Virus record (IMG/VR): IMGVR_UViG_2974779775_000001
Span: 124,108 to 135,653 of that record
DNA length: 11,546 nucleotides
Strand: one strand, 5' to 3'
Source of the DNA: Samistivirus egole
Lineage: Duplodnaviria > Heunggongvirae > Uroviricota > Caudoviricetes
A model generated the notes under the pieces. It had not been told where the DNA came from. It searched no databases and saw nothing but the letters and a program-made list of their open reading frames with translations. This document shows positions 157-11,406 of the stretch, one piece after another. The position numbers and the translations under genes are program-made. How positions within the stretch are numbered: position 1 is the stretch's first letter; the number at the start of each line of letters is the position of its first letter.

Positions 157-412
157 AGAAATATAGGTTGTGCGCAATATAGTAGTGTGCTGATAGTGTG
201 TAATGGTGGGGTATGTTCCGGGCGGGAACAAAAGGCATCTACCCTGCATATTAAGGCTAGCAGACACATGGGCCCACGAATCCAAGGCAAGTAGGGCTGT
301 CAAGCACCGATAATTAGGCCCCAAAAGTGTCCCAAAGTGAGCAGAAACACGCTGATTTCAAGGGAAATGCTGCCATTTTGCCCGAAATCATGCCAAAAAT
401 CCCCAATTTTAA

Positions 413-882
413 CAGTCATTCGTAAAGCAGCCCCAATCTAGCCCACATGCAGCCCCGAATCAGCCCATCTTCCTGGAAAATTAGGCAGTCATCGTAAATG
501 GACCCACCATTCGAAGGCCAATGAGTCTGACAGACCTTAGATTCATAGATGAGGTGTCGATTCTCCCTATATACATGCCAGACTTGAGTCTGATGTGAGA
601 AAAGCCCGGCAATTTGAAGAAGCTTTCGTAAACGAACTAGATAGATACACACGCATTATAGGGAAGGGTAGGTAGTATATGTATATAGGGGACAAGGGTA
701 CTCATCACTACCGGCCTTGAATCTCAGCATGTCTTGTCTCTCATGTATATAGCAGAAAAGCCACCCCGAAGGGTGGCTATTTTTGTAAACTCAAATCCTT
801 GCGAAATTGTGGAATCTTCCGGGATTCTGAGGCCCATTCGTAAAGGGAATCTCTGGGAAATTTGAGGCCCCATCGTAAAGGG
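413..882 (+). repeat. Dispersed TCGTAAA direct repeats (5 copies) in non-coding DNA
   Basis: Core at 420-426, 492-498, 626-632, 838-844 and 873-879. Extended pairs: CAGTCAT(T)CGTAAA at 413-426 and 486-498; TGAGGCCCAT/CATCGTAAAGGG-type 20-mers at 828-847 and 863-882. Confidence 0.7.
755..785. terminator. Bidirectional intrinsic terminator
   Basis: Stem AGCCACCC (759-766) / GGGTGGCT (771-778), loop CGAA (UUCG on minus), A-run before and T-run after. Confidence 0.85.
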
Positions 883-969
883 GAAAAAGTCGGACATAGG
901 GGACAAATGACTGATGATGTTCATAGTCATGATGTTAGTTAGACTAGCTAAGGTGTCCGGGTCCGACAT

Positions 970-1058
970 TGAAAGGTCCCTGGGAGGCGGCCGACCTTCC
1001 GCTCATTACCCCTCGCCGAATGACTGATAGGGGTCCCAGGGACACACTTTGTACTACT
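970..1058 (-). ncRNA. Putative structured small RNA (three-way junction)
   Basis: Lies downstream of a consensus promoter with no plausible ORF. 9-bp closing stem 976-984/1035-1043, 6-bp stem 1008-1013/1029-1034, third stem 985-990/999-1003 with one bulge. Confidence 0.5.
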
Positions 1059-1063
1059 CTTCT

Positions 1064-1092
1064 ATGTTAGCAAGAGCGTGAGCCTATGTCAA
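1064..1092 (-). promoter_or_regulatory. Housekeeping-sigma promoter P1
   Basis: TTGACA (1092-1087), 17 bp, TAACAT (1069-1064), with extended TG. Confidence 0.85.
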
Positions 1093-1094
1093 CA

Positions 1095-1328
1095 TCACTT
1101 GGTGTAGTCAGGGAACAGGCGTTCCAACTCCCAGTCTTCCAAGAGATAGGCAGAGTGAGTGGGGGAGGGTACAGAGATACTGACAGCCCTGCCAAACTTC
1201 TTTGCCTGTTCGTTCCAGACCTTACCGATGAAAGAGTTGGGAGTGATTCCCTCCACCTTGAAGTAGAAGCTTCCCGAGAGAACCAGGTCACCCATGGACA
1301 GTTCGATGCTTTCCTTTACCGGCTTCAT
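1095..1328 (-). CDS. Hypothetical protein, 77 aa, probably leaderless
   Basis: ORF co-oriented with the array. ATG sits 7 nt after the TAGACT -10 element with no SD. Confidence 0.75.
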   Translation of the reverse strand: MKPVKESIELSMGDLVLSGSFYFKVEGITPNSFIGKVWNEQAKKFGRAVSISVPSPTHSAYLLEDWELERLFPDYTK

Positions 1329-1334
1329 GTGTTG

Positions 1335-1363
1335 AGTCTACCAGTACAAGAGGGCTCTGTCTA
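1335..1363 (-). promoter_or_regulatory. Promoter P2
   Basis: TAGACA, 17 bp, TAGACT (1340-1335), with extended TG. Confidence 0.8.
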
Positions 1364-1390
1364 CCCACCGGCCAATTTGTCGGACCCCGA

Positions 1391-1400
1391 CCCCGAAGGG
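1391..1400 (-). terminator. Short cassette-end C(UUCG)G hairpin
   Basis: CCC-CGAA-GGG on plus, 7 nt past the stop at 1408. The stem is only 3 bp. Confidence 0.4.
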
Positions 1401-1407
1401 CCGAGCA

Positions 1408-1707
1408 TCAGAAGTCGGGTTCGTCCATCAGGCTGCTGAACTCCTCTTCCATTTCAGCAATGGCCTCAGCCATCCAGAGGGCTCGTTCCTTCCTGCGAAT
1501 TTCACGACGGTGCCAGCGTCCGTTGTCCAGCTCATCCATGTAGCGGTGGGCAAGGATACGGCTGTTACCCATGACTCCACTGTTACGAGTCACGTGACCA
1601 CTCCACCTCTTACGGTGAAGCCCGGAACGGGGAATCGGGATACCCTTGGCACTGTTAGCGTACTCCGTGGCGCGAACCACACTGTACCAGTCACCGACAG
1701 AACGCAT
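1408..1707 (-). CDS. Hypothetical protein, 99 aa
   Basis: GGGAGG SD 6 nt upstream of ATG, own promoter, stop abutting the cassette hairpin. Confidence 0.8.
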   Translation of the reverse strand: MRSVGDWYSVVRATEYANSAKGIPIPRSGLHRKRWSGHVTRNSGVMGNSRILAHRYMDELDNGRWHRREIRRKERALWMAEAIAEMEEEFSSLMDEPDF

Positions 1708-1733
1708 ATACTTCCTCCCTTTTGCTTAGCTTG

Positions 1734-1762
1734 AGTCTACCAGAGTACAAGGACACTGTCTA
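1734..1762 (-). promoter_or_regulatory. Promoter P3
   Basis: TAGACA (1762-1757), 17 bp, TAGACT (1739-1734), with extended TG. Confidence 0.8.
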
Positions 1763-1795
1763 GCTACCGGGCGTTTGTCCGGCCCCGCCAAAAAT

Positions 1796-1820
1796 CCCCT
1801 AAACCCTTTCGGGCTAGGGG
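1796..1820 (-). terminator. Hairpin after the DUF932 gene (GAAA loop on minus)
   Basis: CCCCTA/TAGGGG outer stem plus CCC/GGG inner stem around TTTC on plus. Confidence 0.55.
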
Positions 1821-1839
1821 ACTGGCGAACATTCCTGGA

Positions 1840-2853
1840 TTAGCTGGCCAGGGCCAGGACCGCCTTACGGATGCGGTTCTTCTCGACGTTGACGACCGGG
1901 TCAAAGCCACTTGCGGCGATGAACAGGTTATCGACGTTGCCACCACGCGGCATCCGGTACCAGTCGATACGCTCCGTCAGAGCGTTCAGAGCACCCGCCA
2001 TCGTGCCAGACAGAGACTGCGTGGTCTTGGGACCGTCACCCGTGTCGGTGAAGATGCCCATGAGGATGTCACGCTTCGACTCCCACTTGACCATGCTGCC
2101 CTTGACATCCTTTTCGGGCTTGGGGTACAGGTCCTGAATCAGAGCATCGAACTTGTCCTTCGTGCACTGCACCTCGAACAGAGAGTTCATCTCACGCTCG
2201 AACTCATCCGCGTAGGCGAACGTGATGTTCAGAGCCTCACGCGCAGCAGCCATGCGACCCTCGATGGTCTGCGTGTGGCGCATCTTGAACTGTTGCTTCA
2301 CACCGTTACGGAGTGCAAAGTTCAGCGTGTTCTGACACACGACACGAACCGGGGTAATGCTTGCCTGAACTGCGACAGACCCGTCATGCGACGTGTTGAC
2401 CAGAAGATACAGCTTGGTCACGTCATCGTCACCGACCTTGATGTCACGCCCGATGCTCAGCGAACCGAACACCACACGACCATCCTTGATAGAACCGGCA
2501 GTCTCCCAGGTTCCACCACCCGCAAGGATGCCGTCACCGAAGCCGAACAGCTCTTCGTTCTGGACGACCTTGTACCGCTCGCCCACCGTGGCCAGAACGT
2601 CATTCCGGCCGGTGAAGGGGTTGGTACGGACGACCATGTGAGGCTCCGTCACGAAGTCATAGGTGTCGGACACCAGACCCATGATTTCCTTGATGGACTC
2701 CAGACGCACATCCCAGCCCGAAAGGTGGGCGAGAGACAGCATCTCCGAAGTGGTCAGCTCCCCCTCGAATACGGTTCCGAGGTTGTGCCACGCGGGCTCA
2801 CTGCGAGTGGCGAACGCGACCTGACCCTTGGAACCAATCTCAAGACCGTGCAT
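1840..2853 (-). CDS. DUF932 domain protein (phage/plasmid-like, TIGR03299 family), 337 aa
   Basis: Start MHGLEI with AGGAGG SD 6 nt upstream. Recognised motifs: PAWHxLG, Y.VVQNEE.F, WETAGS..xGR.VF, YLL..TSHDGS, TPVRVVCQNTL, HT. The ORF-track start at 3000 runs through the promoter and was trimmed. Confidence 0.9.
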   Translation of the reverse strand: MHGLEIGSKGQVAFATRSEPAWHNLGTVFEGELTTSEMLSLAHLSGWDVRLESIKEIMGLVSDTYDFVTEPHMVVRTNPFTGRNDVLATVGERYKVVQNEELFGFGDGILAGGGTWETAGSIKDGRVVFGSLSIGRDIKVGDDDVTKLYLLVNTSHDGSVAVQASITPVRVVCQNTLNFALRNGVKQQFKMRHTQTIEGRMAAAREALNITFAYADEFEREMNSLFEVQCTKDKFDALIQDLYPKPEKDVKGSMVKWESKRDILMGIFTDTGDGPKTTQSLSGTMAGALNALTERIDWYRMPRGGNVDNLFIAASGFDPVVNVEKNRIRKAVLALAS

Positions 2854-2911
2854 GTTGTGCCTCCTAGGCAGATTGGTGTTAGGGCCGGTTTCCCTGCCCT
2901 TCGATGTCTCT

Positions 2912-2941
2912 AGTCTAGCAGTAGGCAAGGGGTGATGTCTA
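2912..2941 (-). promoter_or_regulatory. Promoter P4
   Basis: TAGACA, 18 bp, TAGACT (2917-2912), with extended TG. Leader starts ATCGAAGGG at about 2905. Confidence 0.8.
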
Positions 2942-3006
2942 CCCATGCTGCCGGGCTCATGTCCACAATGTCCGATTTGCCCGTTGCCGGACCCGGACAC
3001 ACGAAG

Positions 3007-3024
3007 GCCCCTCCGAAGAGGGGC
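3007..3024 (-). terminator. Cassette-end C(UUCG)G hairpin
   Basis: 7-bp stem GCCCCTC/GAGGGGC, loop CGAA on plus, no U-tract. Confidence 0.6.
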
Positions 3025-3045
3025 TGTGTGCGAGCCTTAGCAGAC

Positions 3046-3486
3046 TCAGTACGCGGCGTCCAGGCAGGAACGCTCCCAGTTGGCCAGGTACATGCCGTCC
3101 AGCTTGGACACATAGGCGTCCACGATGTCCTTCGAGTCCTTGAGACCCAGACCGGTCTTCTCACGGAGCTGCTTGATGCACTGAATCTTCTTGTTGGAAC
3201 CGACCTCACGGACGATGTCCTTGACCAGCTCCGCACCCTGCGCCTTGACGCGCGCCTCGATGTCACGGAGACGGTTCAGCTCGTGGCTGGTGGGCTGCTC
3301 GGCGTCCTGCTTACCGGAACGGTAGCCAGCCTGGTAGCCCTCGGCGTAGGACTTGTCCTCACGGTTCTGGAGTTCCCCGGCGTAGATGGCCTCGAACATG
3401 TTGACCAGCTCCATGGCCTTGTTGAGGCTCATGTGACCCTCGAAGTTGTGGAGGGAGGCGAGGAGCTGAGCGCGAAGGTCCGACAT
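3046..3486 (-). CDS. Protein with C-terminal ribosomal L7/L12 CTD-like domain, 146 aa
   Basis: KKIQCIKQLREKTGLGLKDSKDIVD closely follows the L7/L12 CTD motif K(I/V)xxIKxxRxxTGLGLKEAKDLVE. GGAGA SD present. Confidence 0.8.
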   Translation of the reverse strand: MSDLRAQLLASLHNFEGHMSLNKAMELVNMFEAIYAGELQNREDKSYAEGYQAGYRSGKQDAEQPTSHELNRLRDIEARVKAQGAELVKDIVREVGSNKKIQCIKQLREKTGLGLKDSKDIVDAYVSKLDGMYLANWERSCLDAAY

Positions 3487-3531
3487 GATGTTCTCCGTTT
3501 CTAGGGGCTCCTTGCCCCTTTCGATGTCTCT

Positions 3532-3561
3532 ATCTTAGCAGTACCAAGGGCCCTGTGTCTA
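3532..3561 (-). promoter_or_regulatory. Promoter P5
   Basis: TAGACA, 18 bp, TAAGAT (3537-3532), with extended TG. Confidence 0.75.
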
Positions 3562-3586
3562 CCGGTCGTTTTTGTCCGGGCCCGAC

Positions 3587-3604
3587 AGGGCCCCGAAGGG
3601 CCCT
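3587..3604 (-). terminator. Cassette-end C(UUCG)G hairpin
   Basis: 7-bp stem AGGGCCC/GGGCCCT, loop CGAA on plus. Confidence 0.6.
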
Positions 3605-3608
3605 TCTG

Positions 3609-4049
3609 TCAGAACCTCACACCGACACCGGAACCGTCCAGCGATTCCACGATGCTCTTTGCGGTACGCAGGTCCAGCGTCGGGAAGTGGGCGCGAAGGT
3701 GCTTGATGCACGCAATCTTGCGCTCCAGGTTGTAGTAGCTGAATTCACTGTTCGCCCAGATGGACGCACGCGCGACCAACTTGGTGTGGTCGTTCTCAGC
3801 GGCATAGGTGGTCAGACGCTCCCCGTGCGCCTTACCCTGTCCGTAGCCGTCGTTGAAGGCGGACTCCACACGCCCGTTCGCCTCCTTACGGGCCAGGTCC
3901 CAGGCGTTGTTCTCCACCTCGTTGACCCGCTCCAGGTGGGCACCGTAGATGAGGTTGGCCACCGTGAACGCCTTCTTCAAGCTCATCTTGACACCGTTGG
4001 CGTTGAAGATACGCATGATGCGGGCCTCGTCCAGGGTGAAGATGCTCAT
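3609..4049 (-). CDS. Second, more diverged L7/L12 CTD-like domain protein, 146 aa
   Basis: RKIACIKHLRAHFPTLDLRTAKSIVE motif. GGAGG SD. Same length and layout as 3046-3486. Confidence 0.75.
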   Translation of the reverse strand: MSIFTLDEARIMRIFNANGVKMSLKKAFTVANLIYGAHLERVNEVENNAWDLARKEANGRVESAFNDGYGQGKAHGERLTTYAAENDHTKLVARASIWANSEFSYYNLERKIACIKHLRAHFPTLDLRTAKSIVESLDGSGVGVRF

Positions 4050-4094
4050 GGTAGCCTCCAGTCTCAGGGAGCTTGTCTCCCTTTCGATGTCTTT

Positions 4095-4123
4095 AGTCTA
4101 CAGGACTAGTGAGGCAGATACAA
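4095..4123 (-). promoter_or_regulatory. Promoter P6
   Basis: TTGTAT, 17 bp, TAGACT (4100-4095). Confidence 0.7.
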
Positions 4124-4151
4124 CCCCTCTTCAAAGTGTCCGGGCCCGACA

Positions 4152-4175
4152 CGGGCCCCGAAAGTCAAGGGCCCG
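4152..4175 (-). terminator. Cassette-end hairpin (10-nt loop variant)
   Basis: CGGGCCC/GGGCCCG stem, loop CGAAAGTCAA on plus, 6 nt past the stop at 4182. Confidence 0.55.
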
Positions 4176-4181
4176 GTAGGG

Positions 4182-4517
4182 TCAAGGGTTGGTGTGTCCC
4201 CTTTTCAGTAGTATCTGTTCGATGATGAATTTCGAATCCATCACGCGATTGAATTCATCATCTGAGCGGCTTTCCGTCCTGCCTGCCCATGCATTGAGAA
4301 TGGAGATGATGAACTGAAACATCACCGCCTGCACAGGCTCAGGATAGGTCGAAAGCAGATAGGCGAATGCATGAGGGTCGAATGACCGCTTATCCATTTC
4401 GTCAATCAGCTTATTGGCCAGACGCTCATACGACGTAGGCCGTGGCGTTACGAGTCGCGCACCCTCATACATGTCAGGTGCGATGATGCTTGTTCGTTTG
4501 AAGGGACTACGCGCCAC
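4182..4517 (-). CDS. Hypothetical protein, about 111 aa (start uncertain)
   Basis: 3' part of track ORF 4182..4859. GTG at 4517 overlaps the upstream stop and follows GGGGGAG. Alternative ATG at 4472. Confidence 0.65.
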   Translation of the reverse strand: MARSPFKRTSIIAPDMYEGARLVTPRPTSYERLANKLIDEMDKRSFDPHAFAYLLSTYPEPVQAVMFQFIISILNAWAGRTESRSDDEFNRVMDSKFIIEQILLKRGHTNP

Positions 4518-4671
4518 CCTCTCCCCCAAAGTCTTCCGTTGTACCGTATCCGTCTGAGACGCTGACAGACAGGCCCAGCACCTTTGCCATGAACTCTGCC
4601 GTAGCAGTAGCAAAGGGCCAGGCCGTGTCGTGAGCGTCATCATCGGGCGTGTCGATTTCGATGATGACCAT
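4507..4671 (-). CDS. Small acidic hypothetical protein, 54 aa (not in the ORF track)
   Basis: Hand translation MVIIEIDTPDDDAHDTAWPFATATAEFMAKVLGLSVSVSDGYGTTEDFGGEGGA*. AGGA upstream. Fills the gap between lsr2 and the next gene. Confidence 0.7.
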   Translation of the reverse strand: MVIIEIDTPDDDAHDTAWPFATATAEFMAKVLGLSVSVSDGYGTTEDFGGEGGA

Positions 4672-4680
4672 GACTCTATC

Positions 4681-5199
4681 CTATCGTGCGTGAACCTCGA
4701 CGTCCATACCGAGCACCACCGGGGAGCCACAGCCGCAGTGCGACAGGCTGTAACCGCACTTGCACACCTCACGCTCCGAGAGACGGATGCGCTTGCCACG
4801 GTAGTAAGCCGTGTACTCGGTACGGTTCGAACGGGTGGGCTCGGCGTGCGGACGGACATCCTTACCGGTCACCTTGACGTGCACACCGGGCGCAGCGGGC
4901 TTGACCTCCGGGTTGTCTGCCTTGTAAGCGGCCAGCACCTCAGCCGACAGACGACCACGGGACGACACGGTGAGACCCTTGGAAGCGGCCCACGCACGCA
5001 CCACCTTGGCATCGAACTGCCCGGCCTTGGGAGCGGCCTTGACGACCTTGCGAGGCGTGGCGTCGGTGTCAGCGAAGACCTTACCCGACTTCTCAGCCTC
5101 AGCGATGGCCTCGTATGCGGCAGCGCTCATCCGGCCACGGGATTCCTTGGCCAGGCCCAGAGAGACAGCGTACGCGCGACGGGTCATGTTGACGTTCAT
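4681..5199 (-). CDS. lsr2: Lsr2-type DNA-binding protein with a duplicated RGR module and Cys-rich tail, 172 aa
   Basis: FDAKVVRAWAASKGLTVSSRGRLSAEVLAAYKA matches the Lsr2 C-terminal DNA-binding domain. A second degenerate copy is at the N-terminus (RRAYAVSLGLAKESRGRMSA). The tail contains CKCGYSLSHCGC. Confidence 0.85.
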   Translation of the reverse strand: MNVNMTRRAYAVSLGLAKESRGRMSAAAYEAIAEAEKSGKVFADTDATPRKVVKAAPKAGQFDAKVVRAWAASKGLTVSSRGRLSAEVLAAYKADNPEVKPAAPGVHVKVTGKDVRPHAEPTRSNRTEYTAYYRGKRIRLSEREVCKCGYSLSHCGCGSPVVLGMDVEVHAR

Positions 5200-5226
5200 G
5201 GGGTTTCCTTCCCTCGGTGTGCACTC

Positions 5227-5255
5227 AGTCTATCGGATTGAAGGCGGAGAGGCAA
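5227..5255 (-). promoter_or_regulatory. Promoter P7a (proximal lsr2 promoter)
   Basis: TTGCCT, 17 bp, TAGACT (5232-5227). Confidence 0.7.
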
Positions 5256-5296
5256 GCCCCGGTGCAGAGGTTGGTTTCCCTCCCCTTCATGTCTCT

Positions 5297-5326
5297 AGTA
5301 TAGAGGACGTAACAGGGTCCTGTCTA
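5297..5326 (-). promoter_or_regulatory. Promoter P7b (distal lsr2 promoter)
   Basis: TAGACA, 18 bp, TATACT (5302-5297). Confidence 0.75.
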
Positions 5327-5367
5327 CAGTCCTAAATGTCCGATTTGCCCGAAGTCCGGGCCCGACA

Positions 5368-5383
5368 TGCCCCCGAAGGGGCA
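5368..5383 (-). terminator. Cassette-end C(UUCG)G hairpin
   Basis: 6-bp stem TGCCCC/GGGGCA, 5 nt past the stop at 5389. Confidence 0.6.
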
Positions 5384-5388
5384 AGGGG

Positions 5389-6123
5389 CTAAGCCTTTCG
5401 GCGCTTAGAGACCTTGGACGCGAAACGGATATCTGCCTTACCGAAGATGCAAAGGCCACACGTTACGCACGCGCCACCCTTTTCGGTAATGAGAGGAATG
5501 CGCTTGGCATTCTCAGGGCAGATAGCCCCAGGCTTACCAGTTTCGGTAAGCATGAATTCCTTACCCTGTTCGTGAGTCTCAGAGAGATAGGCAAGGCGGA
5601 CCGAAGGGAATTCCTTCTTTGTCGCCAGCGCCTTTTCCTCATTCTCACTGTCCACACTCAGATAAACAGAGAGGTTTTCGTGCCCTACGATGTGACGCAC
5701 GTACTGGAATGACCTAGTGTAAATCCAGAATTGCACATCCTGGAAAACCTCAGCCATTCGAGCGATATTCTGTGCGTATTCCGCAGAGAAGATATCGCCG
5801 TCAGCGTGCCAGCGAAACAGCTTAGGCGCGTCACGCTTTTCACAGTCAGCCCTGAAACTCTCAATCATTACTGCGAGATTGAGAAACTGGTCCTCGTTAG
5901 GGTCATTGAGAATGGCCCAGTTGTTGAGAACCAATTCACGATATGCAGGATACTGCCTTTCGAGCTTACCTGCATAGCATACGGTCTCACAGACCTTTGT
6001 CGCGCCGGGGCAGGAAAACGCCTTTCCACTCGGAATGGAGAATGCGTTTTTGATGACCGACTGTTCCCCTCGCTTGTTGGCAAGGTTGGCAGTCTTACGG
6101 TCATTCGTGCGCTTAAGCGGCAT
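5389..6123 (-). CDS. GP88-family Cys-rich phage protein, 244 aa
   Basis: Start MPLKRTNDRKTAN with GGAGG SD. Motifs CPGATxxCxxxCYA, FRWHADGD, FWIYTRS, NLSVYLSVD, CPEN and CVTCGLC are typical of the actinophage GP88 family as I recall it. Confidence 0.75.
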   Translation of the reverse strand: MPLKRTNDRKTANLANKRGEQSVIKNAFSIPSGKAFSCPGATKVCETVCYAGKLERQYPAYRELVLNNWAILNDPNEDQFLNLAVMIESFRADCEKRDAPKLFRWHADGDIFSAEYAQNIARMAEVFQDVQFWIYTRSFQYVRHIVGHENLSVYLSVDSENEEKALATKKEFPSVRLAYLSETHEQGKEFMLTETGKPGAICPENAKRIPLITEKGGACVTCGLCIFGKADIRFASKVSKRRKA

Positions 6124-6418
6124 TGCGTTCCTCCGAGCTGTAGGGCAATTCAGTGTTACGGACAATGGTACCGAGCGAAACAGCGTTGATTGTCTTGTGT
6201 CCAAGAATCCACGCCATTACGACACGGTGCTGACCATTGTAGACCGTGCCATTCTGAAAGTTGATAGGCATCTGAATTCCGTCACGCTCGCATGACTCAA
6301 TGAATTCATCGCTCATCTCAAAGAAAAGCTGAGTGAAAAGGTCCATCGTGGACTGACCTTCCTCGCGGTCTGCGAAGTCGGCACGGGCAACGATGGCTTC
6401 AACGCTCAGCTTCCTCAT
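6113..6418 (-). CDS. ParB/Srx-like domain protein (paralog 1), 101 aa, probably leaderless
   Basis: SC..DGIQMPI...NGQHRV..A..LG pattern resembles the ParB/Srx G.HR catalytic core. ATG at 6418 lies 8 nt after TATACT. The stop overlaps the GP88 start by 11 nt. Confidence 0.7.
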   Translation of the reverse strand: MRKLSVEAIVARADFADREEGQSTMDLFTQLFFEMSDEFIESCERDGIQMPINFQNGTVYNGQHRVVMAWILGHKTINAVSLGTIVRNTELPYSSEERNAA

Positions 6419-6425
6419 GTGTTCG

Positions 6426-6454
6426 AGTATAGCAAGACATGCGGACGTAAACAA
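6426..6454 (-). promoter_or_regulatory. Promoter P8
   Basis: TTGTTT, 17 bp, TATACT (6431-6426), with extended TG. Confidence 0.75.
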
Positions 6455-6505
6455 GCCCCTAGACGAATGTCTGAAATGTCCGTTGTCCGCCCCGGACATG
6501 ACTGA

Positions 6506-6523
6506 GGGCCCCCGAAGGGGCCC
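6506..6523 (-). terminator. Cassette-end C(UUCG)G hairpin
   Basis: 7-bp stem GGGCCCC/GGGGCCC. Confidence 0.6.
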
Positions 6524-6527
6524 GGTG

Positions 6528-6599
6528 TCAGAGAAAGATGATTGCGAGAAAGAACACAATCACCACGTACCAGAGAAAGGCGGTCAGACATTCTCGCAA
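6528..6599 (-). CDS. Putative transmembrane micropeptide, about 23 aa (start uncertain)
   Basis: (M/L)RECLTAFLWYVVIVFFLAIIFL*. TGA lies 4 nt from the cassette hairpin. TTG start at 6599, or GTG at 6647. Confidence 0.4.
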   Translation of the reverse strand: MRECLTAFLWYVVIVFFLAIIFL

Positions 6600-6661
6600 A
6601 CCTCCCGGTACCAAGAGTAGTGCGTGTACAGGTAGAAGTGAAGCCACTCAACGAAGTGCAT
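6584..6661 (-). CDS. Aromatic-rich micropeptide, 25 aa
   Basis: MHFVEWLHFYLYTHYSWYREVCENV*. AGGAG SD 5 nt upstream. ATG is 2 nt after the upstream TAA. Confidence 0.55.
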   Translation of the reverse strand: MHFVEWLHFYLYTHYSWYREVCENV

Positions 6662-6663
6662 GT

Positions 6664-6987
6664 TTACTCCTGACAGAGAGGCAGGCCCAAGTCGTCCTGC
6701 ATGTCCAGAAAGTCCGAGTTGAAGATTTCAAGGTACGTGCCACCCTTGATTTCTTCGATACCGAGCATGTATGCCACGATGAGCCTGTGACATCCCTCGT
6801 GAATCATGTTCTGCTCCTCATCATAGCAGATGGGAGAGACGATTCCAAGGGTCTGGCATGAGTCCATGAACTCATCCGACAGCTCAGACAGCTTGCGCAA
6901 GAGAAGTTGTTCACGAGTGAGACCAAGAGCCTCGGCGTCGTAGAACAGAGCGTTGTCGATGAGTGCCTTCACACTGTACATCTTCAT
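6664..6987 (-). CDS. ParB/Srx-like domain protein (paralog 2), 107 aa
   Basis: SDEFMDSC..LGIVSPI....HEGCHRL..A..LG. Aligns by eye with 6113-6418. Confidence 0.75.
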   Translation of the reverse strand: MKMYSVKALIDNALFYDAEALGLTREQLLLRKLSELSDEFMDSCQTLGIVSPICYDEEQNMIHEGCHRLIVAYMLGIEEIKGGTYLEIFNSDFLDMQDDLGLPLCQE

Positions 6988-7010
6988 TGCTTTCCCCTTT
7001 CGCTAGTACG

Positions 7011-7040
7011 AGTCTACTGCACTACCGGGCCCCATGTCAA
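7011..7040 (-). promoter_or_regulatory. Promoter P9
   Basis: TTGACA, 18 bp, TAGACT (7016-7011). Confidence 0.85.
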
Positions 7041-7071
7041 CACATCTGAAAAATGTCCGGGGCCGCCAAAA

Positions 7072-7089
7072 GGGGCCCCGAAGGGCCCC
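7072..7089 (-). terminator. Cassette-end C(UUCG)G hairpin
   Basis: 7-bp stem GGGGCCC/GGGCCCC. Confidence 0.6.
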
Positions 7090-7113
7090 CAAGGGGTCAA
7101 GCCGTTGTTGTGA

Positions 7114-7386
7114 TTAGTCCTCGCTGGTGTCCTTCTGGCTCACCAGCTTCGCACGACCGAGCAGAGAGGCGTCAGCCTCCTTCCACTTACGGACCGGGCG
7201 ACCGGTGCGCACGCGGGGGAAGCGGGCCAGGATGGCACGGGCGCGGGTCTCGTCGGCCTCCAGGATGTCGAACCGCTGGAAGGGAGCGACGTTGGACGTG
7301 GCACCGAACTCGATGTCCACCCCCTGGACAATCATGGCCACACGGAGGGCGAGAGCGTCACGGGCGGGAACGATACCGGCAATCAT
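7114..7386 (-). CDS. Hypothetical protein, 90 aa
   Basis: GGAG SD 5 nt upstream, GC3-rich codons, followed by the cassette hairpin. Confidence 0.8.
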   Translation of the reverse strand: MIAGIVPARDALALRVAMIVQGVDIEFGATSNVAPFQRFDILEADETRARAILARFPRVRTGRPVRKWKEADASLLGRAKLVSQKDTSED

Positions 7387-7499
7387 GTGAACTCCACTGC
7401 TAGAAGTAAGCTGGGGTATGAAGTTGTCAGAGACTTTGGCAGGAAGGGAAAAACCTCACGTTGCGAGGCCCTGTGGCCTGTCCCCTTGTGCTTAGCTAG

Positions 7500-7529
7500 A
7501 GTCTAGCAGGCTGACCTACTCGCAGTCAA
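7500..7529 (-). promoter_or_regulatory. Promoter P10 (-35 lies inside the upstream CDS)
   Basis: TTGACT, 18 bp, TAGACT (7505-7500), with extended TG. Confidence 0.8.
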
Positions 7530-7698
7530 CCAGGTACTCGGGCTCGTCGTCCTCGGAGACGGTCCAGATGTCCGCCAGCCATCCGCTACGGATGACGCCA
7601 GCCGACACGAACTTGTGCGGCTCAGCAGCCTCACGGACAGCGTCCGCGTGCTCCTCTTCGGAGATGATGCTGTAGCCCTCGGGAATCTCGAACGTCAT
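7516..7698 (-). CDS. Small acidic hypothetical protein, 60 aa
   Basis: AGGAG SD, own promoter and leader hairpin. Confidence 0.8.
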   Translation of the reverse strand: MTFEIPEGYSIISEEEHADAVREAAEPHKFVSAGVIRSGWLADIWTVSEDDEPEYLVDCE

Positions 7699-7743
7699 GA
7701 TTGCTCCTCTCTTGGGGAGGTTTCCCTCCCTTTCGATGTTCTA

Positions 7744-7772
7744 AGTCTACATGAGAGATGGGGCGGACGCAA
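7744..7772 (-). promoter_or_regulatory. Promoter P11
   Basis: TTGCGT, 17 bp, TAGACT (7749-7744). Confidence 0.75.
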
Positions 7773-7813
7773 CACCCAATATTCGTTAGGCTGCCTAAGT
7801 TGTCCGGGTCCGA

Positions 7814-7823
7814 CCCCGAAGGG
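7814..7823 (-). terminator. Short cassette-end C(UUCG)G hairpin
   Basis: CCC-CGAA-GGG on plus, 3-bp stem, 8 nt past the stop at 7832. Confidence 0.4.
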
Positions 7824-7831
7824 CCAGACTG

Positions 7832-7990
7832 TTAATCTCCCATGTCATCCAAGTGAGCATCGGGAGCGGGCTCGAACTCAAGGAAGGTGTCTTCGAAAAG
7901 CACCATCCATGCGTAGCCCTCACGGTTGTCAGGATTGCACTTACCACGGTGCATGTCACCCGTGGCAGCACCACACTCAATGCAGGTCAC
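7832..7990 (-). CDS. Small CCHC-type Zn-binding candidate, 52 aa (not in the ORF track)
   Basis: GTG start overlaps the upstream TGA (GTGA), GGAGG SD. Sequence MTCIECGAATGDMHRGKCNPDNREGYAWMVLFEDTFLEFEPAPDAHLDDMGD*. Confidence 0.75.
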   Translation of the reverse strand: MTCIECGAATGDMHRGKCNPDNREGYAWMVLFEDTFLEFEPAPDAHLDDMGD

Positions 7991-8205
7991 TCGGCCTCCT
8001 TGATGTCCATGGCAACCAGCATGTCAACCCTGCTGACAGTGAGGGCAATCTCTCGCCCGTCCTTGTCAGTGAAGTTGAAGGTACTTGCCTTGGCAGCGAC
8101 CGCCTTGCGCCACGACTCGTTCGTCTCCTCCGCACTGTGCGAAGTCAGAGTGAACAGAACCGGCTTGTCACGGTGGGCCAGGTGAACAGCAACGCGAGTA
8201 GCCAT
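7987..8205 (-). CDS. Hypothetical protein, 72 aa
   Basis: GAGGA SD, own promoter and leader hairpin. Confidence 0.8.
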   Translation of the reverse strand: MATRVAVHLAHRDKPVLFTLTSHSAEETNESWRKAVAAKASTFNFTDKDGREIALTVSRVDMLVAMDIKEAE

Positions 8206-8250
8206 GATGCATCCTCTCTTCCGGGAGTTTTTCTCCCTTTCGATGCTCTA

Positions 8251-8279
8251 ACTCTACACCATCAGACAGACAGAATCAA
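8251..8279 (-). promoter_or_regulatory. Promoter P12
   Basis: TTGATT, 17 bp, TAGAGT (8256-8251). Leader ATCGAAAGGG starts at 8244. Confidence 0.75.
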
Positions 8280-8297
8280 GACTGTCGGGCCCCGACA

Positions 8298-8315
8298 CGG
8301 GCCCCGAAGGGCCCG
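8298..8315 (-). terminator. Cassette-end C(UUCG)G hairpin
   Basis: 7-bp stem CGGGCCC/GGGCCCG. Confidence 0.6.
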
Positions 8316-8326
8316 GCGGGAAGGTG

Positions 8327-8611
8327 TTACTTCTTGGCCTTGGCGCGCTTGTTGCTGTGGTTGCCGTTCATGAGGGCCGTGAAGTCCAGCATGATGTTCT
8401 GCTTGAAGTTGGTCGCTCCGTGGAACTTGCCGTCCTGGTCACGGATGACGATGCGGACCTCGGTGGAGTCGCTGCCCGGAGTGGTCTTCCAGGTCTCCAG
8501 ACGGATGCTGTAGGTGCTCTTGGAGCCCTTGACCTTGAAGCCCTCGGAGATGGTGACGCTGGAGACGATGTTGTGGTTGACGTCGGTCGCCTTGCGAAGG
8601 GTAACAGCCAC
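8327..8611 (-). CDS. Hypothetical basic protein, 94 aa
   Basis: GTG start with AGGAG SD, GC3-rich codons. Confidence 0.8.
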   Translation of the reverse strand: MAVTLRKATDVNHNIVSSVTISEGFKVKGSKSTYSIRLETWKTTPGSDSTEVRIVIRDQDGKFHGATNFKQNIMLDFTALMNGNHSNKRAKAKK

Positions 8612-8663
8612 GGTGACTCCTAAGTCTCTGCTAGGGGTTTCTTTCCCCCTTGCTGATAGCTAA

Positions 8664-8692
8664 AGTCTACACGACTCAGCCGACAAGTACAA
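8664..8692 (-). promoter_or_regulatory. Promoter P13
   Basis: TTGTAC, 17 bp, TAGACT (8669-8664). Confidence 0.75.
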
Positions 8693-8731
8693 CCCATGAA
8701 ATTATGTCCGAAATGTCTGTCGGAGCCGGAC

Positions 8732-8749
8732 AGGGGCCCGAAGGCCCCT
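8732..8749 (-). terminator. Cassette-end C(UUCG)G hairpin
   Basis: 7-bp stem AGGGGCC/GGCCCCT, 4 nt past the stop at 8754. Confidence 0.6.
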
Positions 8750-8753
8750 CCCG

Positions 8754-9080
8754 TCAGTCTGCCAGGATGGCGGCCAGACGCTCACGCTGCGCACGGTCAT
8801 GCGCACCGGAACGGCTCGCGTACTCCTGGAACTCGGAGACGGTTTCGACGGAGAAGTGTCCGTTTTCGTCCAGCTTGGCCACACGAACGGTGTAGCGTCG
8901 GGCGTAGTCGTCGTTCCGCTCCGAAGAGACGAAGAACATGGACTGTCCGTCGATGGTGCTGTAGCACATGTCCGAAATGCGCGACTTCCACCACCGCATG
9001 GTAGAAGCGGAGAAGAAGTGGTTGCCCTGGTCCTTGGCGATGGCCTTGGCGTCCTCGATGCTGAACAGAACCTTACGCAT
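8754..9080 (-). CDS. Phage hypothetical protein, 108 aa
   Basis: Start MRKVLFS with GAGGA SD. The HFF...TMRWW.SRI...FFVSSE...RRYTVR pattern recalls a widespread uncharacterised phage family. Track start at 9224 trimmed. Confidence 0.8.
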   Translation of the reverse strand: MRKVLFSIEDAKAIAKDQGNHFFSASTMRWWKSRISDMCYSTIDGQSMFFVSSERNDDYARRYTVRVAKLDENGHFSVETVSEFQEYASRSGAHDRAQRERLAAILAD

Positions 9081-9109
9081 TTGGGGTTCCTCTCCCTCGG
9101 TGTAAGACG

Positions 9110-9138
9110 AGTCTATCAGAGACAAGGGACATGCACAA
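9110..9138 (-). promoter_or_regulatory. Promoter P14
   Basis: TTGTGC, 17 bp, TAGACT (9115-9110). Confidence 0.75.
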
Positions 9139-9176
9139 CACCTACCGGGCCTTTTTGAAAATGTCCGACCCCGACA

Positions 9177-9190
9177 GGGCCCGAAGGCCC
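9177..9190 (-). terminator. Cassette-end C(UUCG)G hairpin
   Basis: 5-bp stem GGGCC/GGCCC, extendable by GACAG/CTGTC. Confidence 0.55.
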
Positions 9191-9195
9191 CTCTG

Positions 9196-9510
9196 TCAGG
9201 ATTCGATGGACTTCTGACGCTCACGCGGGAGCGCAGCCACCTCCGTGATGATTTCGGTCAGACGCTCCTCATCGACCCACCCCTCAACGGAGTCATCCAA
9301 CACGCCATTGTCGTCAGGCATGTTGCCCTCGGGGTCGAAGATTCCGCATTCGACTCCGTAGGTTCCGTACGCCTTGACGACCGACAGACGCCATCCGTTC
9401 TCGTAGTTGACGTAGAAGTGGATGCCCGTTCCGTTCTCACCGTGACGCGGACCGAAAGTGACCTTTGCACCCGGAGCAACGTCACGCGCGATGTTGGCAA
9501 GCTCACTCAT
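9196..9510 (-). CDS. Phage hypothetical protein, 104 aa
   Basis: Start MSELANI after purine-rich GAAGGGAAAG. Contains NGWRLSVV..YG...E and DDSVEGW..EE motifs. Track start at 9570 trimmed. Confidence 0.8.
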   Translation of the reverse strand: MSELANIARDVAPGAKVTFGPRHGENGTGIHFYVNYENGWRLSVVKAYGTYGVECGIFDPEGNMPDDNGVLDDSVEGWVDEERLTEIITEVAALPRERQKSIES

Positions 9511-9541
9511 GGTCTTTCCCTTCGTCGTTTTCGTTAGCACT

Positions 9542-9570
9542 AGTCTAGCAGTCGGATTTTTGAGTCGCAA
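9542..9570 (-). promoter_or_regulatory. Promoter P15
   Basis: TTGCGA, 17 bp, TAGACT (9547-9542), with extended TG. Confidence 0.75.
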
Positions 9571-9631
9571 CCCCTCAGACCGATTTTTTAGTCTGTGGGC
9601 AAAATGTCTGTTTTTTTAGTCGGGGGCGGAC

Positions 9632-9643
9632 GCCCCGAAGGGC
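9632..9643 (-). terminator. Cassette-end C(UUCG)G hairpin
   Basis: 4-bp stem GCCC/GGGC. Confidence 0.45.
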
Positions 9644-9651
9644 TAGCCGCC

Positions 9652-9963
9652 TTACTCCCAGGGCCGGTAGTCAGACCAGTCGGAACCCTCGTGATTCTGA
9701 ATTTCGACGGTCACCGTGTCACCCAAACGGTGATTCACGCTGTACAGGGAACGGCTGGAGCCCTGGTAACGCCTCTGGGCCTTTGCCCACTTGACCAGCT
9801 TCTCAGCCTGCTTACGGGAACGGCAGGGCCATGCCTCGATGCACTCTCCGTAGTTGTACCACCATCCGCCCTCTTCCGAGCCACCACAGGCCCGGTCCAC
9901 CAGATGAATGTTCACCCAGTGCTTGTTCCGACGACGCTGACCCATACGCAGACCCTTGGCCAT
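9652..9963 (-). CDS. Phage hypothetical protein (GGxEEGGWWY motif), 103 aa
   Basis: AAGGAGG SD. VNIHLVDRACGGSEEGGWWY and a terminal RPWE recall an uncharacterised phage family. Confidence 0.85.
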   Translation of the reverse strand: MAKGLRMGQRRRNKHWVNIHLVDRACGGSEEGGWWYNYGECIEAWPCRSRKQAEKLVKWAKAQRRYQGSSRSLYSVNHRLGDTVTVEIQNHEGSDWSDYRPWE

Positions 9964-9987
9964 TTCCGCCTCCTTGTTGATGACCTA

Positions 9988-10016
9988 AGTCTAACAGAAG
10001 CCTAGGACAGATTCAA
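9988..10016 (-). promoter_or_regulatory. Promoter P16
   Basis: TTGAAT, 17 bp, TAGACT (9993-9988), with extended TG. Confidence 0.75.
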
Positions 10017-10071
10017 TATGCTTGCCAGGATGTACAGTGATTGTCGGACCCGGACAAAAAAATTCGCCTAC

Positions 10072-10132
10072 AAATTCACCCCTCTTTTCTAAGGGAATCT
10101 GGGAAGAAATCCTTGAAAAGAGGGGTGAATTT
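10072..10132. repeat. 18-bp perfect inverted repeat (long hairpin)
   Basis: AAATTCACCCCTCTTTTC (10072-10089) / GAAAAGAGGGGTGAATTT (10115-10132), with inner AAGG/CCTT pairing. Confidence 0.85.
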
Positions 10133-10318
10133 TTTCTGCGAATGTTTTTCGAAGGTCAGATTGCGACTTTTTCGTCTTTTCCTGCCTCACAAAGGCAGTA
10201 TTTCGAATGTGTCGCCTCGATTGCGACAAAGCCGCTTTCCTGATACCTCGAAAGAAGGTTGGCCAGAAGGGACGAGTTGAAAACCGGTGTTTTGGATTTC
10301 AGCCCGTCCCTTTCCAGC

Positions 10319-10376
10319 AAAAGGGACATACTGTGGAATCGAACCTGAGAAACAGCCTTTTTCCGCATTATGCCCC
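10319..10376 (-). terminator. Stem plus UUUU element after the 48-aa gene
   Basis: On minus, GGGGCAUA (10376-10369) pairs with UAUGUCCC (10330-10323), followed by UUUU. Confidence 0.5.
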
Positions 10377-10386
10377 CCCCTACTGC

Positions 10387-10533
10387 CTAGGCCAGTTCGG
10401 ACATGTGCGGGTAGGCGTCCCAGTCGAAGCCGTCCACACGGTCACCATCCTGCACATCGGACACAGGCACCGTGATGGTGGTGAAGACACCAGCGTCGCT
10501 GGCCTGCTCAAGAAGGGTACGGAGGTCAGTCAT
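10387..10533 (-). CDS. Small acidic hypothetical protein, 48 aa (not in the ORF track)
   Basis: MTDLRTLLEQASDAGVFTTITVPVSDVQDGDRVDGFDWDAYPHMSELA*. AAGGA SD and own promoter. Confidence 0.75.
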   Translation of the reverse strand: MTDLRTLLEQASDAGVFTTITVPVSDVQDGDRVDGFDWDAYPHMSELA

Positions 10534-10564
10534 GTTCTTCCTTCTTCCTCTTGGTGATAGCTCT

Positions 10565-10593
10565 AGTCTAGTCTACGTACATGGGGGATGCAA
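10565..10593 (-). promoter_or_regulatory. Promoter P17
   Basis: TTGCAT, 17 bp, TAGACT (10570-10565). A second overlapping TAGACT is at 10575-10570. Confidence 0.75.
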
Positions 10594-10653
10594 GCCCTAG
10601 ATGTTCCGGGAATTTTCAGCGCCTATCGTACACGCGCGGGGGAAATGTGGGGT

Positions 10654-10781
10654 ATGTACTTAATGTACCTTAATAGGGCCTATGTACCATATGTCCGATA
10701 TGTACCATGCGTACCTGTATGTACCCATATAGCAGGATATATCCCCTATCCTCCCTATGTACCGAATGTCCGATATGCCCG
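10654..10781 (+). repeat. Degenerate tandem repeat ATGT(A/C)C with about 9-bp period
   Basis: ATGTAC at 10654, 10663, 10682, 10700, 10719 and 10757. ATGTCC at 10691 and 10766. GCGTAC at 10709. Confidence 0.75.
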
Positions 10782-10896
10782 TTTGTCGGGGACGGACTGT
10801 TACACATCCGTTATCTAAGAAACCCTGTTTTGGTGGTTTGGCGGGCCCTGACTAGGGCATGATGTAGGCATAGCCACTACGGACCAGGGAGACACA

Positions 10897-11358: not shown

Positions 11359-11372
11359 GCGGCTTTGAGAGT

Positions 11373-11406
11373 AGCCCCTAGGACGTAGTGGCCTAGGGGC
11401 TCTTTC
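11373..11406 (+). terminator. Terminator after the HNH gene
   Basis: 10-bp stem AGCCCCTAGG/CCTAGGGGCT followed by CTTTC. Confidence 0.7.

Follow-up and report, generated by a model that had tools for sequence, protein, structure and literature searches.

Examination of a stretch of 11,546 nucleotides (nt) from Samistivirus egole (IMG/VR record IMGVR_UViG_2974779775_000001, positions 124,108 to 135,653; hereafter, the window) leads us to propose that the long direct terminal repeat (DTR) of this phage is an array of promoter-leader-hairpin-dyad cassettes, resembling the promoter-early stem-loop (PeSL) motifs of T4-like phages, in which the repeated units serve recombination. We regard this reading as probable. 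Its direct evidence comes from two deletion junctions in related phages, both located within the same repeated leader block.

Positions 206-11546 of the window occur at both ends of the phage's own 135,653-bp genome (1-11341 and 124313-135653, 100% identical), and the window thus consists of the DTR plus 205 unique bases. The source is a cluster BE Streptomyces phage (Samistivirus, Stanwilliamsviridae), and the whole window matched 87 records, all of them Streptomyces phages of cluster BE—with Leo04, Watermoore and Peebs as the best matches (~95% identity over 91%)—in agreement with an initial annotation of this DNA, which had assigned it to an actinophage. The DTR measures 10.4-12.6 kb in five whole genomes, and both of its boundary sequences are conserved across genera (GTGTGTAATG/GTGGGG and GCATGTAT/CATACA, the slash marking the boundary, in Anedea, Karimac, Coruscant and Mildred21); these boundaries (206 and 11546) are probably packaging cut sites. 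BE repeats of ~11 kb, with 20-25 open reading frames (ORFs) including an lsr2-like gene, have been described and their size likened to the repeats of T5 and SPO1 (Hughes 2018, PMC5764925), and DTRs were reported as the exception to the evenly spread similarity among BE genomes (deCarvalho 2023, PMC10690885). Our literature search for BE phages found no paper describing a repeated regulatory unit in the terminal repeats.

One regulatory unit recurs throughout the terminal repeat

The array comprises 21 co-oriented minus-strand genes, running from 10533 to 1095 (g1 to g21, listed below; 20-22 in relatives' annotations), with one divergent plus-strand HNH gene at 10897-11358; the co-oriented arrangement had been recognized initially, with a count of about 22. 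From a print-out of all minus-strand spacers we read the same intergenic order in 14 of them: stop, hairpin, dyad, -35, 17/18 bp, -10, leader, ribosome-binding site (RBS) and start. The ordered module described before thus stands for these 14 units but not for the promoter at 7500-7529, which has no hairpin or dyad ahead of it. The outcome is about 15 self-contained cassettes in one orientation, each with one to three small genes, among which 8205/7990 and 6418/6123 form pairs, and 5199/4671/4517 a trio, under a shared promoter.

All 18 promoter-like sites claimed initially were recovered, with a spacer of 17 bp in 13 and 18 bp in 5 cases. The -35 element reads TTGNNN at 13/18 sites and TAGACA at 5/18, and the -10 element is TAGACT at 13 sites rather than the 14 counted before (there are 14 words, two of which overlap at 10565-10575), the other forms being TAGAGT, TATACT (twice), TAAGAT and TAACAT. 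The word TAGACT occurs 15 times in the window against 3.5 expected, and 11 promoters passed a generic sigma-70 scan against 3.3 expected. Promoters read by the Streptomyces housekeeping sigma factor follow the consensus TTGAC(Pu)-16/18-TAG(Pu)(Pu)T, a type which the array promoters fit in sequence; the same promoter type is also present at 81-118 kb of the genome. As for the hairpins, CTTCGG has 18 minus-strand occurrences and a single plus-strand one (7.1 expected, both strands together); like that of TAGACT and of the dyad, its count exceeds shuffled controls. Among 14 module hairpins examined, all had a predicted fold, and the loop was UUCG in 13 and GAAA in one (1772-1825).

Conservation continues beyond the promoter. 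The -10 element is followed by a conserved start region, a block that had escaped the initial annotation and reads (A/G)AGACAUCGAAA or (A/G)AGACATCGAAA. In many units a 5-6-bp leader hairpin lies past this block (arms GGGAG/CTCCC, GGGGC/GCCCC, GGGGG/CCCCC or GAGAG/CTCTC); its 5' arm is Shine-Dalgarno-like, with the real RBS further on. RNAalifold, run on 26 non-identical leaders from the window and related phages, returned 5 pairs, 3 of them with compensatory changes, and the hairpin may act as a 5' stabilizer or in translation control. Longer similarities reported initially were also recovered: the block AATGTCCGATWTGCCCG was found at 2967, 5335 and 10765, and the promoters at 1335 and 1734 (1332-1363 and 1731-1762) are 85% alike.

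Recombination junctions fall within the repeated unit

Five events separate the window from its closest relatives: the replacement of 1101-1710, of 9201-9612 and, specifically in Samisti12, of 8758-9612, and the deletion of 2944-3508 in PacManQ and of 2918-4078 in Cursive. Each of the 10 ends of these events coincides with a stop codon, falls just beyond a dyad or lies within a leader. Three-way alignments revealed that the PacManQ and Cursive deletions both switch parental unit within an identical TAGAGACATCGAA(A)GGG, where TAGAGACATCGAA is the shared -10/leader block and the identical stretch at the crossovers spans 13-20 bp; the module at 2854-3045 is the second parent of both junctions alike. 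Two independent deletions change parent inside this sequence, which is direct evidence for the repeated leader block as a crossover point.

A broader view came from clusters of homology boundaries taken across 16 relatives, 39/49 of which fell in units or ≤5 nt from gene ends (12.7 expected, p 6e-15). Several boundaries recur, namely 7050 in 7 relatives, 9613 in 7 and 9200 in 9: the edges at 7050 and 9613 lie a few bases past a dyad (6 nt past 9619-9631 in the case of 9613), those at 9200 and 8755 are stop codons, and those at 1711-1733 and 3493-3527 are in leaders. Soil metagenome contigs share the Leo04-type replacements, bounded in the same way at 1074/1775 and 9200/9613. Breakpoints of gene presence and absence thus fall where the initial annotation had proposed to look for them, and gene content, whose invariance among relatives it had named as an argument against the array, does vary—9/21 genes are patchy (g4, g5, g7, g8, g9, g17, g18, g20 and g21). 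Thus, g21 is 93% identical to the Daubenski copy while the backbone is 95-100% Leo04-like, and the L7/L12-like family occupies a different array position in Karimacvirus. Additional joints in metagenome contigs (3194-4062, 4104-9177, and 7754 back to 4132) were set aside; their sides are shorter than 30 letters, and they probably represent unit-to-unit similarity or relatives.

Several points weigh against an array shaped by recombination at its repeats. A collinear backbone of 12 genes is present in all genera compared, which limits shuffling, and the paralogues within the array are old, with no recent duplication seen; gain or recent duplication through the repeats, put forward in the initial annotation, is at most conjectural. 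The boundary statistic overstates the case, since selection removes gene-disrupting recombinants and BLAST ends favor fast-evolving spacers. Furthermore, as the module hairpins have no U tract and a canonical terminator scan called none of them, termination at these elements is something we only infer. Alternatively, the units could be purely regulatory, with content differences arising from illegitimate recombination plus selection, as in mosaic phages, and the deletions from ordinary short-repeat slippage in which the units play no special part. Such a model agrees with the collinear backbone, the 10/49 boundary clusters inside genes, the shortness of the homology blocks (13-20 bp) and the spacer bias; boundaries at gene ends are, moreover, expected in any phage once selection acts on random recombinants. 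It accounts less readily for the use of the same conserved block by two independent deletions, for boundaries that recur at the edges of elements, or for the DTR being the most variable part of BE genomes (PMC10690885), and we consider it unlikely. The two deletion junctions, as the sole direct evidence, weigh more than the boundary statistic.

According to the cassette model that we prefer, host RNA polymerase would transcribe the cassettes right after DNA entry and the UUCG hairpins would limit read-through between them, such that each small gene could be expressed on its own for host takeover or counter-defence, by analogy with the SPO1 terminal redundancy. Recombination, within one genome or between genomes that co-infect a cell, would find short homology in the repeated blocks and so remove, replace or move cassettes, in the manner of the PeSL motifs of T4-like phages. 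A sequence-specific protein encoded by the phage, probably a dimer, would recognize the dyad in DNA, and the HNH endonuclease at the repeat edge is the best candidate for it.

Comparison with known phage systems

The closest parallel is the PeSL motif of T4-like phages (Arbiol 2010, PMC2839356; Comeau 2014, PMC4122927). In both cases a repeated composite of a strong host-sigma promoter (18 sites of sigma-70 type here, by sequence) and a GC stem-loop lies between small accessory genes; the motifs are densest in the most plastic part of the genome (here the variable DTR, to which the dyad is confined), and indels or replacements of close relatives are joined at the motif, as in PacManQ and Cursive and at the 39/49 boundaries. 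The two systems differ in several respects, however. The present host is a high-GC Gram-positive bacterium and the phage a siphovirus with no sequence relation to T4-like phages; the PeSL stem-loop sits within or next to the promoter, while that of the array has a UUCG tetraloop and is located 20-60 bp upstream; the DTR-restricted, lineage-specific dyad and the conserved leader with its own hairpin are particular to the unit described here, where crossovers fall in the leader block and the promoter and terminator roles are putative. The unit would therefore be PeSL-like by function, not by homology.

The array also shares with the terminal repeats of SPO1 and T5 a size of 10-13 kb, ~20-26 small genes, and strong host-type promoters with strong RBS, and the 11,341-bp DTR filled by the array agrees with the T5/SPO1-like placement in the initial annotation. 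No protein homology between the two was seen, although no search aimed at it was made. Unlike the cassettes, SPO1 genes are grouped in operons, and their early timing and toxicity have been shown, while both are conjectural for the present phage. To our knowledge, no repeated hairpin-plus-dyad unit occurs in the SPO1 or T5 repeats.

Gene content and feature map of the array

Recognizable genes in the array are g14 (Lsr2-like), g13 (GP88), g19 (DUF932) and g5 (DUF7447), together with the pairs g11/g12 (ParB-like nuclease-domain, from relatives' annotation) and g17/g18 (L7/L12 C-terminal-domain-like segment). The remaining genes match only PHROGs of unknown function; 16/21 have no Pfam family, and the only functional name in PHROGs is Lsr2-like. 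Both paralogue pairs reported initially in neighboring cassettes are real, each within one PHROG, but they are old: 3609-4049 and 3046-3486 are 25% identical (E 2e-5), and 6664-6987 and 6113-6418 are 34% identical (E 1e-14). One of the two 146-amino-acid (aa) paralogues at 3046-3486 and 3609-4049 matches PF00542, the ribosomal L7/L12 C-terminal domain (E 2.7e-8), which suggests ribosomal-stalk mimicry. A host-takeover or counter-defence role for the array genes is a reasonable analogy with the SPO1 module, 8/26 products of which attenuate growth (PMC6873191). The features are listed below, on the minus strand unless stated; P1 to P18 denote the promoter-like sites.

206-11546, no strand: DTR, 11,341 bp, at both genome ends
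10897-11358, plus strand: divergent HNH endonuclease gene, 153 aa, phrog_7426 (E 2.5e-88); its clade tracks the dyad type
10534-10896: control region with dyad 10785-10797, a GGTACAT/CGGACAT cluster and P1, TTGCAT-17-TAGACT (-10 at 10565-10570)
10387-10533: g1, 48 aa, phrog_7139
10156-10368: g2, a doubtful 70-aa ORF from relatives' annotations, followed by a long hairpin (10056-10149)
9964-10155: module with the long hairpin, dyad 10043-10055 and P2, TTGAAT-17-TAGACT (9988-9993)
9652-9963: g3, 103 aa, phrog_7302
9511-9651: module with UUCG hairpin, dyad 9619-9631 and P3, TTGCGA-17-TAGACT (9542-9547)
9196-9510: g4, 104 aa; cassette in no isolate compared, with two other genes in its place in Leo04-type phages
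9081-9195: module with UUCG hairpin, dyad 9163-9175 and P4, TTGTGC-17-TAGACT (9110-9115)
8754-9080: g5, 108 aa, DUF7447, patchy
8612-8753: module with UUCG hairpin, dyad 8719-8731, P5, TTGTAC-17-TAGACT (8664-8669), and leader hairpin
8327-8611: g6, 94 aa
8206-8326: module with UUCG hairpin, dyad 8284-8296, P6, TTGATT-17-TAGAGT (8251-8256), and leader hairpin GGGAG/CTCCC
7832-8205: g7 (7987-8205, 72 aa) and g8 (7832-7990, 52 aa), overlapping, patchy
7699-7831: module with UUCG hairpin, its 3' arm common with dyad 7802-7814, P7, TTGCGT-17-TAGACT (7744-7749), and leader hairpin
7516-7698: g9, 60 aa, patchy
7387-7529: P8, TTGACT-18-TAGACT (7500-7529), with a long leader and no hairpin or dyad
7114-7386: g10, 90 aa
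6988-7113: module with UUCG hairpin, variant dyad 7055-7067 (GGCGGCCCCGGAC) and P9, TTGACA-18-TAGACT (7011-7040)
6664-6987: g11, 107 aa, ParB-like nuclease-domain (relatives' annotation), phrog_4635
6419-6663: module with a possible 25-aa ORF, UUCG hairpin, dyad 6485-6497 and P10, TTGTTT-17-TATACT (6426-6431)
6113-6418: g12, 101 aa, paralogue of g11 (34% identity)
5389-6123: g13, 244 aa, GP88 family (E 1e-54)
5200-5388: two-promoter module with UUCG hairpin, dyad 5354-5366, P11, TAGACA-18-TATACT (5297-5326), and P12, TTGCCT-17-TAGACT (5227-5232)
4681-5199: g14, 172 aa, Lsr2-like DNA-bridging protein
4182-4671: g15 (4507-4671, 54 aa) and g16 (4182-4517, 111 aa), predicted to be co-transcribed with g14
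4050-4181: module with hairpin, dyad 4138-4150, P13, TTGTAT-17-TAGACT (4095-4100), leader block and leader hairpin; parent of the Cursive junction
3609-4049: g17, 146 aa, phrog_5819
3487-3608: module with UUCG hairpin, dyad 3574-3586, P14, TAGACA-18-TAAGAT (3532-3561), leader block and leader hairpin; parent of the PacManQ junction
3046-3486: g18, 146 aa, paralogous to g17 and including an L7/L12 C-terminal-domain-like segment; missing from both PacManQ and Cursive
2854-3045: module with UUCG hairpin, variant dyad 2986-2998, P15, TAGACA-18-TAGACT (2912-2941), and leader block 2897-2909
1840-2853: g19, 337 aa, DUF932 (E 1e-49)
1708-1839: module with GAAA hairpin, variant dyad 1777-1789 and P16, TAGACA-17-TAGACT (1734-1762); boundaries at 1711 and 1733
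1408-1707: g20, 99 aa, patchy, only in Evy, Warpy, Karimac, Yaboi and Tomas
1329-1407: module with UUCG hairpin overlapping dyad 1379-1391, and P17, TAGACA-17-TAGACT (1335-1363)
1095-1328: g21, 77 aa, patchy; present in Daubenski, not in the Leo04 group
955-1094: last unit with P18, TTGACA-17-TAACAT (1064-1092), no ORF, a conserved stem region of ~70 nt and dyad 955-967

A symmetric dyad is restricted to the terminal repeats and differs between lineages

The dyad GTCSG-N3-CSGAC, which had been assigned to the repeated unit from the outset, is present in 13 exact copies in the window, along with one-mismatch intergenic copies at 1777, 2986 and 7055. With at most one mismatch allowed, 18 matches were counted against 2.2 expected (0/200 shuffles reached 18), and the symmetry extends to TGTCSG-N3-CSGACA (13-15 bp). 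The phage's own genome contains 27 exact dyads, all in the two DTRs except one located 60 bp outside the left repeat, and no exact copy was found in its remaining 112 kb. Across five whole genomes, each with ~110 kb of unique DNA, every DTR carries 10-13 dyads of one type per genome, with none outside save the own-genome copy just mentioned.

The dyad sequence is lineage-specific, with at least five forms. Type A is GTCSG-N3-CSGAC; type B, (GG)CCGCCCCGG(CC), is found in Anedea, Bmoc, Karimac, Yaboi, Wofford, StarPlatinum and LukeCage; type C/E is GCGCCCGGCGC; type D is GACCG-GCC-CGGTC; and type F, TGCGG-N3-CCGCA, comes from a metagenome contig. Coruscant has the 13-mer GGCGCCCGGCGCC, the core of which recurs in two uncultivated relatives, and Tomas has GACCGGCCCGGTC. 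The differing 13-mers of the relatives share one location, directly past the hairpin. The Anedea dyad, GGCCGCCCCGGCC, fits the SfiI-type site GGCCN5GGCC, and that of Coruscant consists of two GGCGCC words; in this they may resemble the interrupted-palindrome restriction sites of actinomycetes. The restriction of the dyad to DTRs, its lineage-specific forms and its tracking by the HNH gene (see below) are new observations. Both S. griseus ATCC 10137 and S. lividans JI 1326 served as isolation hosts for phages of types A and B, which makes a host factor unlikely as the determinant of dyad specificity.

The dyad could in principle act in RNA, as the second hairpin of a two-hairpin terminator or as a 3'-end stabilizer kept uniform by gene conversion and read by no protein. 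In favor of this, the dyads of types B, C and D are GC stems of 5 perfect pairs around a 3-nt loop, the pair at positions 2 and 12 switches between types (T-A, G-C and A-T), the orientation of type B is 11:1 with transcription, and five type A units have a UUCG stem that is lengthened by the first half of the dyad. In type A, however, positions 4 and 10 are complementary in only 3/13 copies, and in the predicted RNA fold the dyad either stays unpaired or gives up its first half to the UUCG stem, with a 3-bp stem at best. An RNA hairpin thus accounts poorly for the dyad, which is better explained as a symmetric DNA site bound by a dimeric protein. The RNA reading is also at odds with a dyad sequence that is itself conserved next to UUCG stems that vary freely, with Karimac keeping only the 9-mer CCGCCCCGG and not the outer pairing positions, with the existence of reversed copies, and with UUCG hairpins elsewhere in the genome that have no dyad. 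On balance, we find it quite improbable.

A second alternative is an operator, through which a phage or host regulator other than the HNH protein would switch all DTR promoters together after the early phase. Operators of this sort are familiar from phiC31, where conserved inverted repeats are bound by the phage repressor. Together with the stoperators of cluster A mycobacteriophages (Mavrich & Hatfull 2019, PMC6550527; PMC9283540), they exemplify 13-17-bp intergenic actinophage sites in 10-30 copies that differ between lineages and evolve with a phage reader protein; the dyad resembles them in size, repetition and lineage-specific sequence, and may likewise evolve with a reader. In 14 units the symmetric site separates the hairpin from the following -35, it is restricted to a promoter-rich repeat, and all copies in a genome change in concert, as stoperators do with their repressor (PMC6550527). 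Moreover, the Coruscant-type arrays (Coruscant itself and three others) have a second dyad, AGATG-N7-CATCT, that lies between the first dyad and the -35 in nearly every unit and abuts the latter; this second dyad is absent from the window. Stoperators, on the other hand, are asymmetric, oriented, genome-wide and bound by the immunity repressor of a temperate phage. The dyad lacks these defining features, being symmetric, confined to the DTRs of lytic phages (0 copies in the unique 110 kb) and accompanied by no repressor. BE phages are lytic and have no known repressor (PMC10690885), and the covarying candidates found were the HNH endonuclease, plus only a few small ORFs of unknown family. The gap between dyad and -35 ranges from 4 to 48 bp, and a helical phasing was not accepted (R ~0.5 for any period of 10.5-15, p ~0.05, not specific to 10.5 bp). 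With a variable gap and at most weak periodicity, the dyad is associated with the hairpin at the end of its cassette and not with the promoter, and indeed the promoter at 7500 has no dyad and the dyad at 955 no later promoter. We consider the operator possible but doubtful.

An HNH endonuclease at the repeat edge tracks the dyad type

When all Anedea ORFs were compared with two type A genomes and Karimac, the HNH endonuclease emerged as the shared protein most clearly closer to Karimac. In a tree of 30 HNH sequences, 14/14 type A rows form one clade (91/84), with further clades for type B (99/94) and type C/E (100/99). Anedea and Bmoc combine type B dyads with a B-clade HNH protein, while the DUF932 and Lsr2 trees place both phages inside type A Samistivirus, beside Mildred21. 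For HNH, the approximately unbiased (AU) test rejected grouping of Anedea and Bmoc with type A (p 0.013, for a group named after seeing the tree); for DUF932 and Lsr2, it rejected one clade uniting type B (p ~1e-12). Between Mildred21 and Anedea the dyad differs in each alignable orthologous unit, amounting to at least 10 units between Samisti-like genes, all with a changed dyad. Lsr2, DUF932 and GP88 were discarded as candidate dyad readers, as their trees do not follow the dyad type.

The HNH family is confined to BE-like phages; no sequence match was found in the PDB, and the AlphaFold model (mean predicted local distance difference test score 47) was too poor to use. PacI and Hpy99I are small dimeric HNH restriction endonucleases that read palindromes, and I-HmuI/II of SPO1 and SP82 are phage HNH nickases acting in competition between related phages. 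The present protein resembles these enzymes as an HNH-motif protein of ~150 aa with a putative GC-rich (interrupted) palindromic target in restriction-site style; unlike them, it has no sequence match to any solved structure and is paired with its candidate site through sequence comparison.

A different explanation, which we hold to be tentative, is hitch-hiking: an ancestor of Anedea and Bmoc would have taken the right edge of the repeat, with HNH gene and control region, from a Karimac-like phage, the dyad form would then have spread through the array by gene conversion, and the HNH protein itself would serve packaging or another task. Small HNH proteins often assist terminases. The Anedea DNA just upstream of the HNH gene (ORF 9574-9720) matches only Karimac, which makes co-transfer followed by dyad homogenization possible; other small Anedea proteins are Karimac-like as well, and the link between HNH and dyad rests on one robust discordant lineage, Anedea/Bmoc. 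All of this counts against a functional pairing, as does the fate of a second candidate discordance (mgP0024; metagenome contig L081 versus L079), which was not established (AU p 0.47). Hitch-hiking, in turn, has to contend with at least 10 orthologous units in which the dyad changed, requiring selection or a very efficient conversion limited to 13 bp. The sequences of the probable cut sites on both DTR boundaries do not vary with dyad type, and the HNH clades are therefore not accounted for by altered packaging specificity. With one evolutionary event, no second case and Karimac-like DNA beside the gene, we rate the pairing of HNH and dyad modestly, as a tentative proposal somewhat short of an even chance.

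In its full form—with the dyads as cognate sites of the repeat-edge HNH protein, i.e., a nuclease and 13 targets, one per cassette border, all belonging to the repeat itself—the proposal is speculative. If true, HNH nicks or breaks at the dyads would seed cassette exchange between co-infecting phages, exclude or convert phages of another site type, or prime copying of the 11-kb repeat at packaging, and specificity would switch by a joint change of the enzyme and all of its sites. A lytic phage would then possess a cassette system akin to integrons or homing elements.

Further features of the window

In the last unit (955-1092), the near-consensus promoter precedes a region of ~70 nt, which is closed by a long stem, and then a dyad. 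Its DNA is 76-86% conserved in 12/13 relatives, including another genus; a small-RNA candidate at this location was rejected, since it folds no better than shuffles (z +0.23). The ORF of g2 (10156-10368) has a low GC content, no Pfam family and a tRNA T-loop-like word, GGTTCGATTCC, and the hairpin past it has a ~20-bp stem (-38 kcal/mol, z -4.5). Instead of a gene, the region 10056-10368 may hold a non-coding RNA. Scanning the window for Rfam families and tRNAs returned nothing relevant.

Between P1 and the HNH gene (10600-10800), ~9 GGTACAT/GGGCATA words are clustered together with CGGACAT words, and this cluster is retained in phages of every dyad type; with its iteron-like look, it could be an origin or control region. 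Near the left repeat end, the AT-rich non-coding DNA at 400-900 contains five TTTACGA(A/T)(A/T)G words, often within short palindromes such as CCCTTTACGAATGGG. Finally, a DUF2637-like membrane protein gene in the phage's own genome (13200-14219) contains 28-36 TGTC/GACA words in ~400 bp of its 3' half (~4 expected). This field (13.2-13.5 kb) was dismissed as a partner of the dyad, as the same words occur in phages of all dyad types (five genomes).

Implications for BE phages

In size, BE phages rank with the largest phages of Streptomyces, and previous descriptions of their repeats went no further than 20-25 genes of unknown function. The array turns this region into a list of ~20 genes that are candidates for host takeover or counter-defence and come with natural, predicted strong promoters, leaders and 3' hairpins, and the cassettes would be useful for function screens and as expression parts for Streptomyces. 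The DTR-only dyad, changing in step with a nuclease gene, constitutes a concrete candidate protein-site pair that may explain how such arrays are regulated, recombined or copied. The junctions in PacManQ and Cursive extend the PeSL idea from T4-like phages of Gram-negative bacteria to an unrelated actinophage, suggesting that regulatory repeats acting as recombination points are a general route by which lytic phages renew their sets of early genes.

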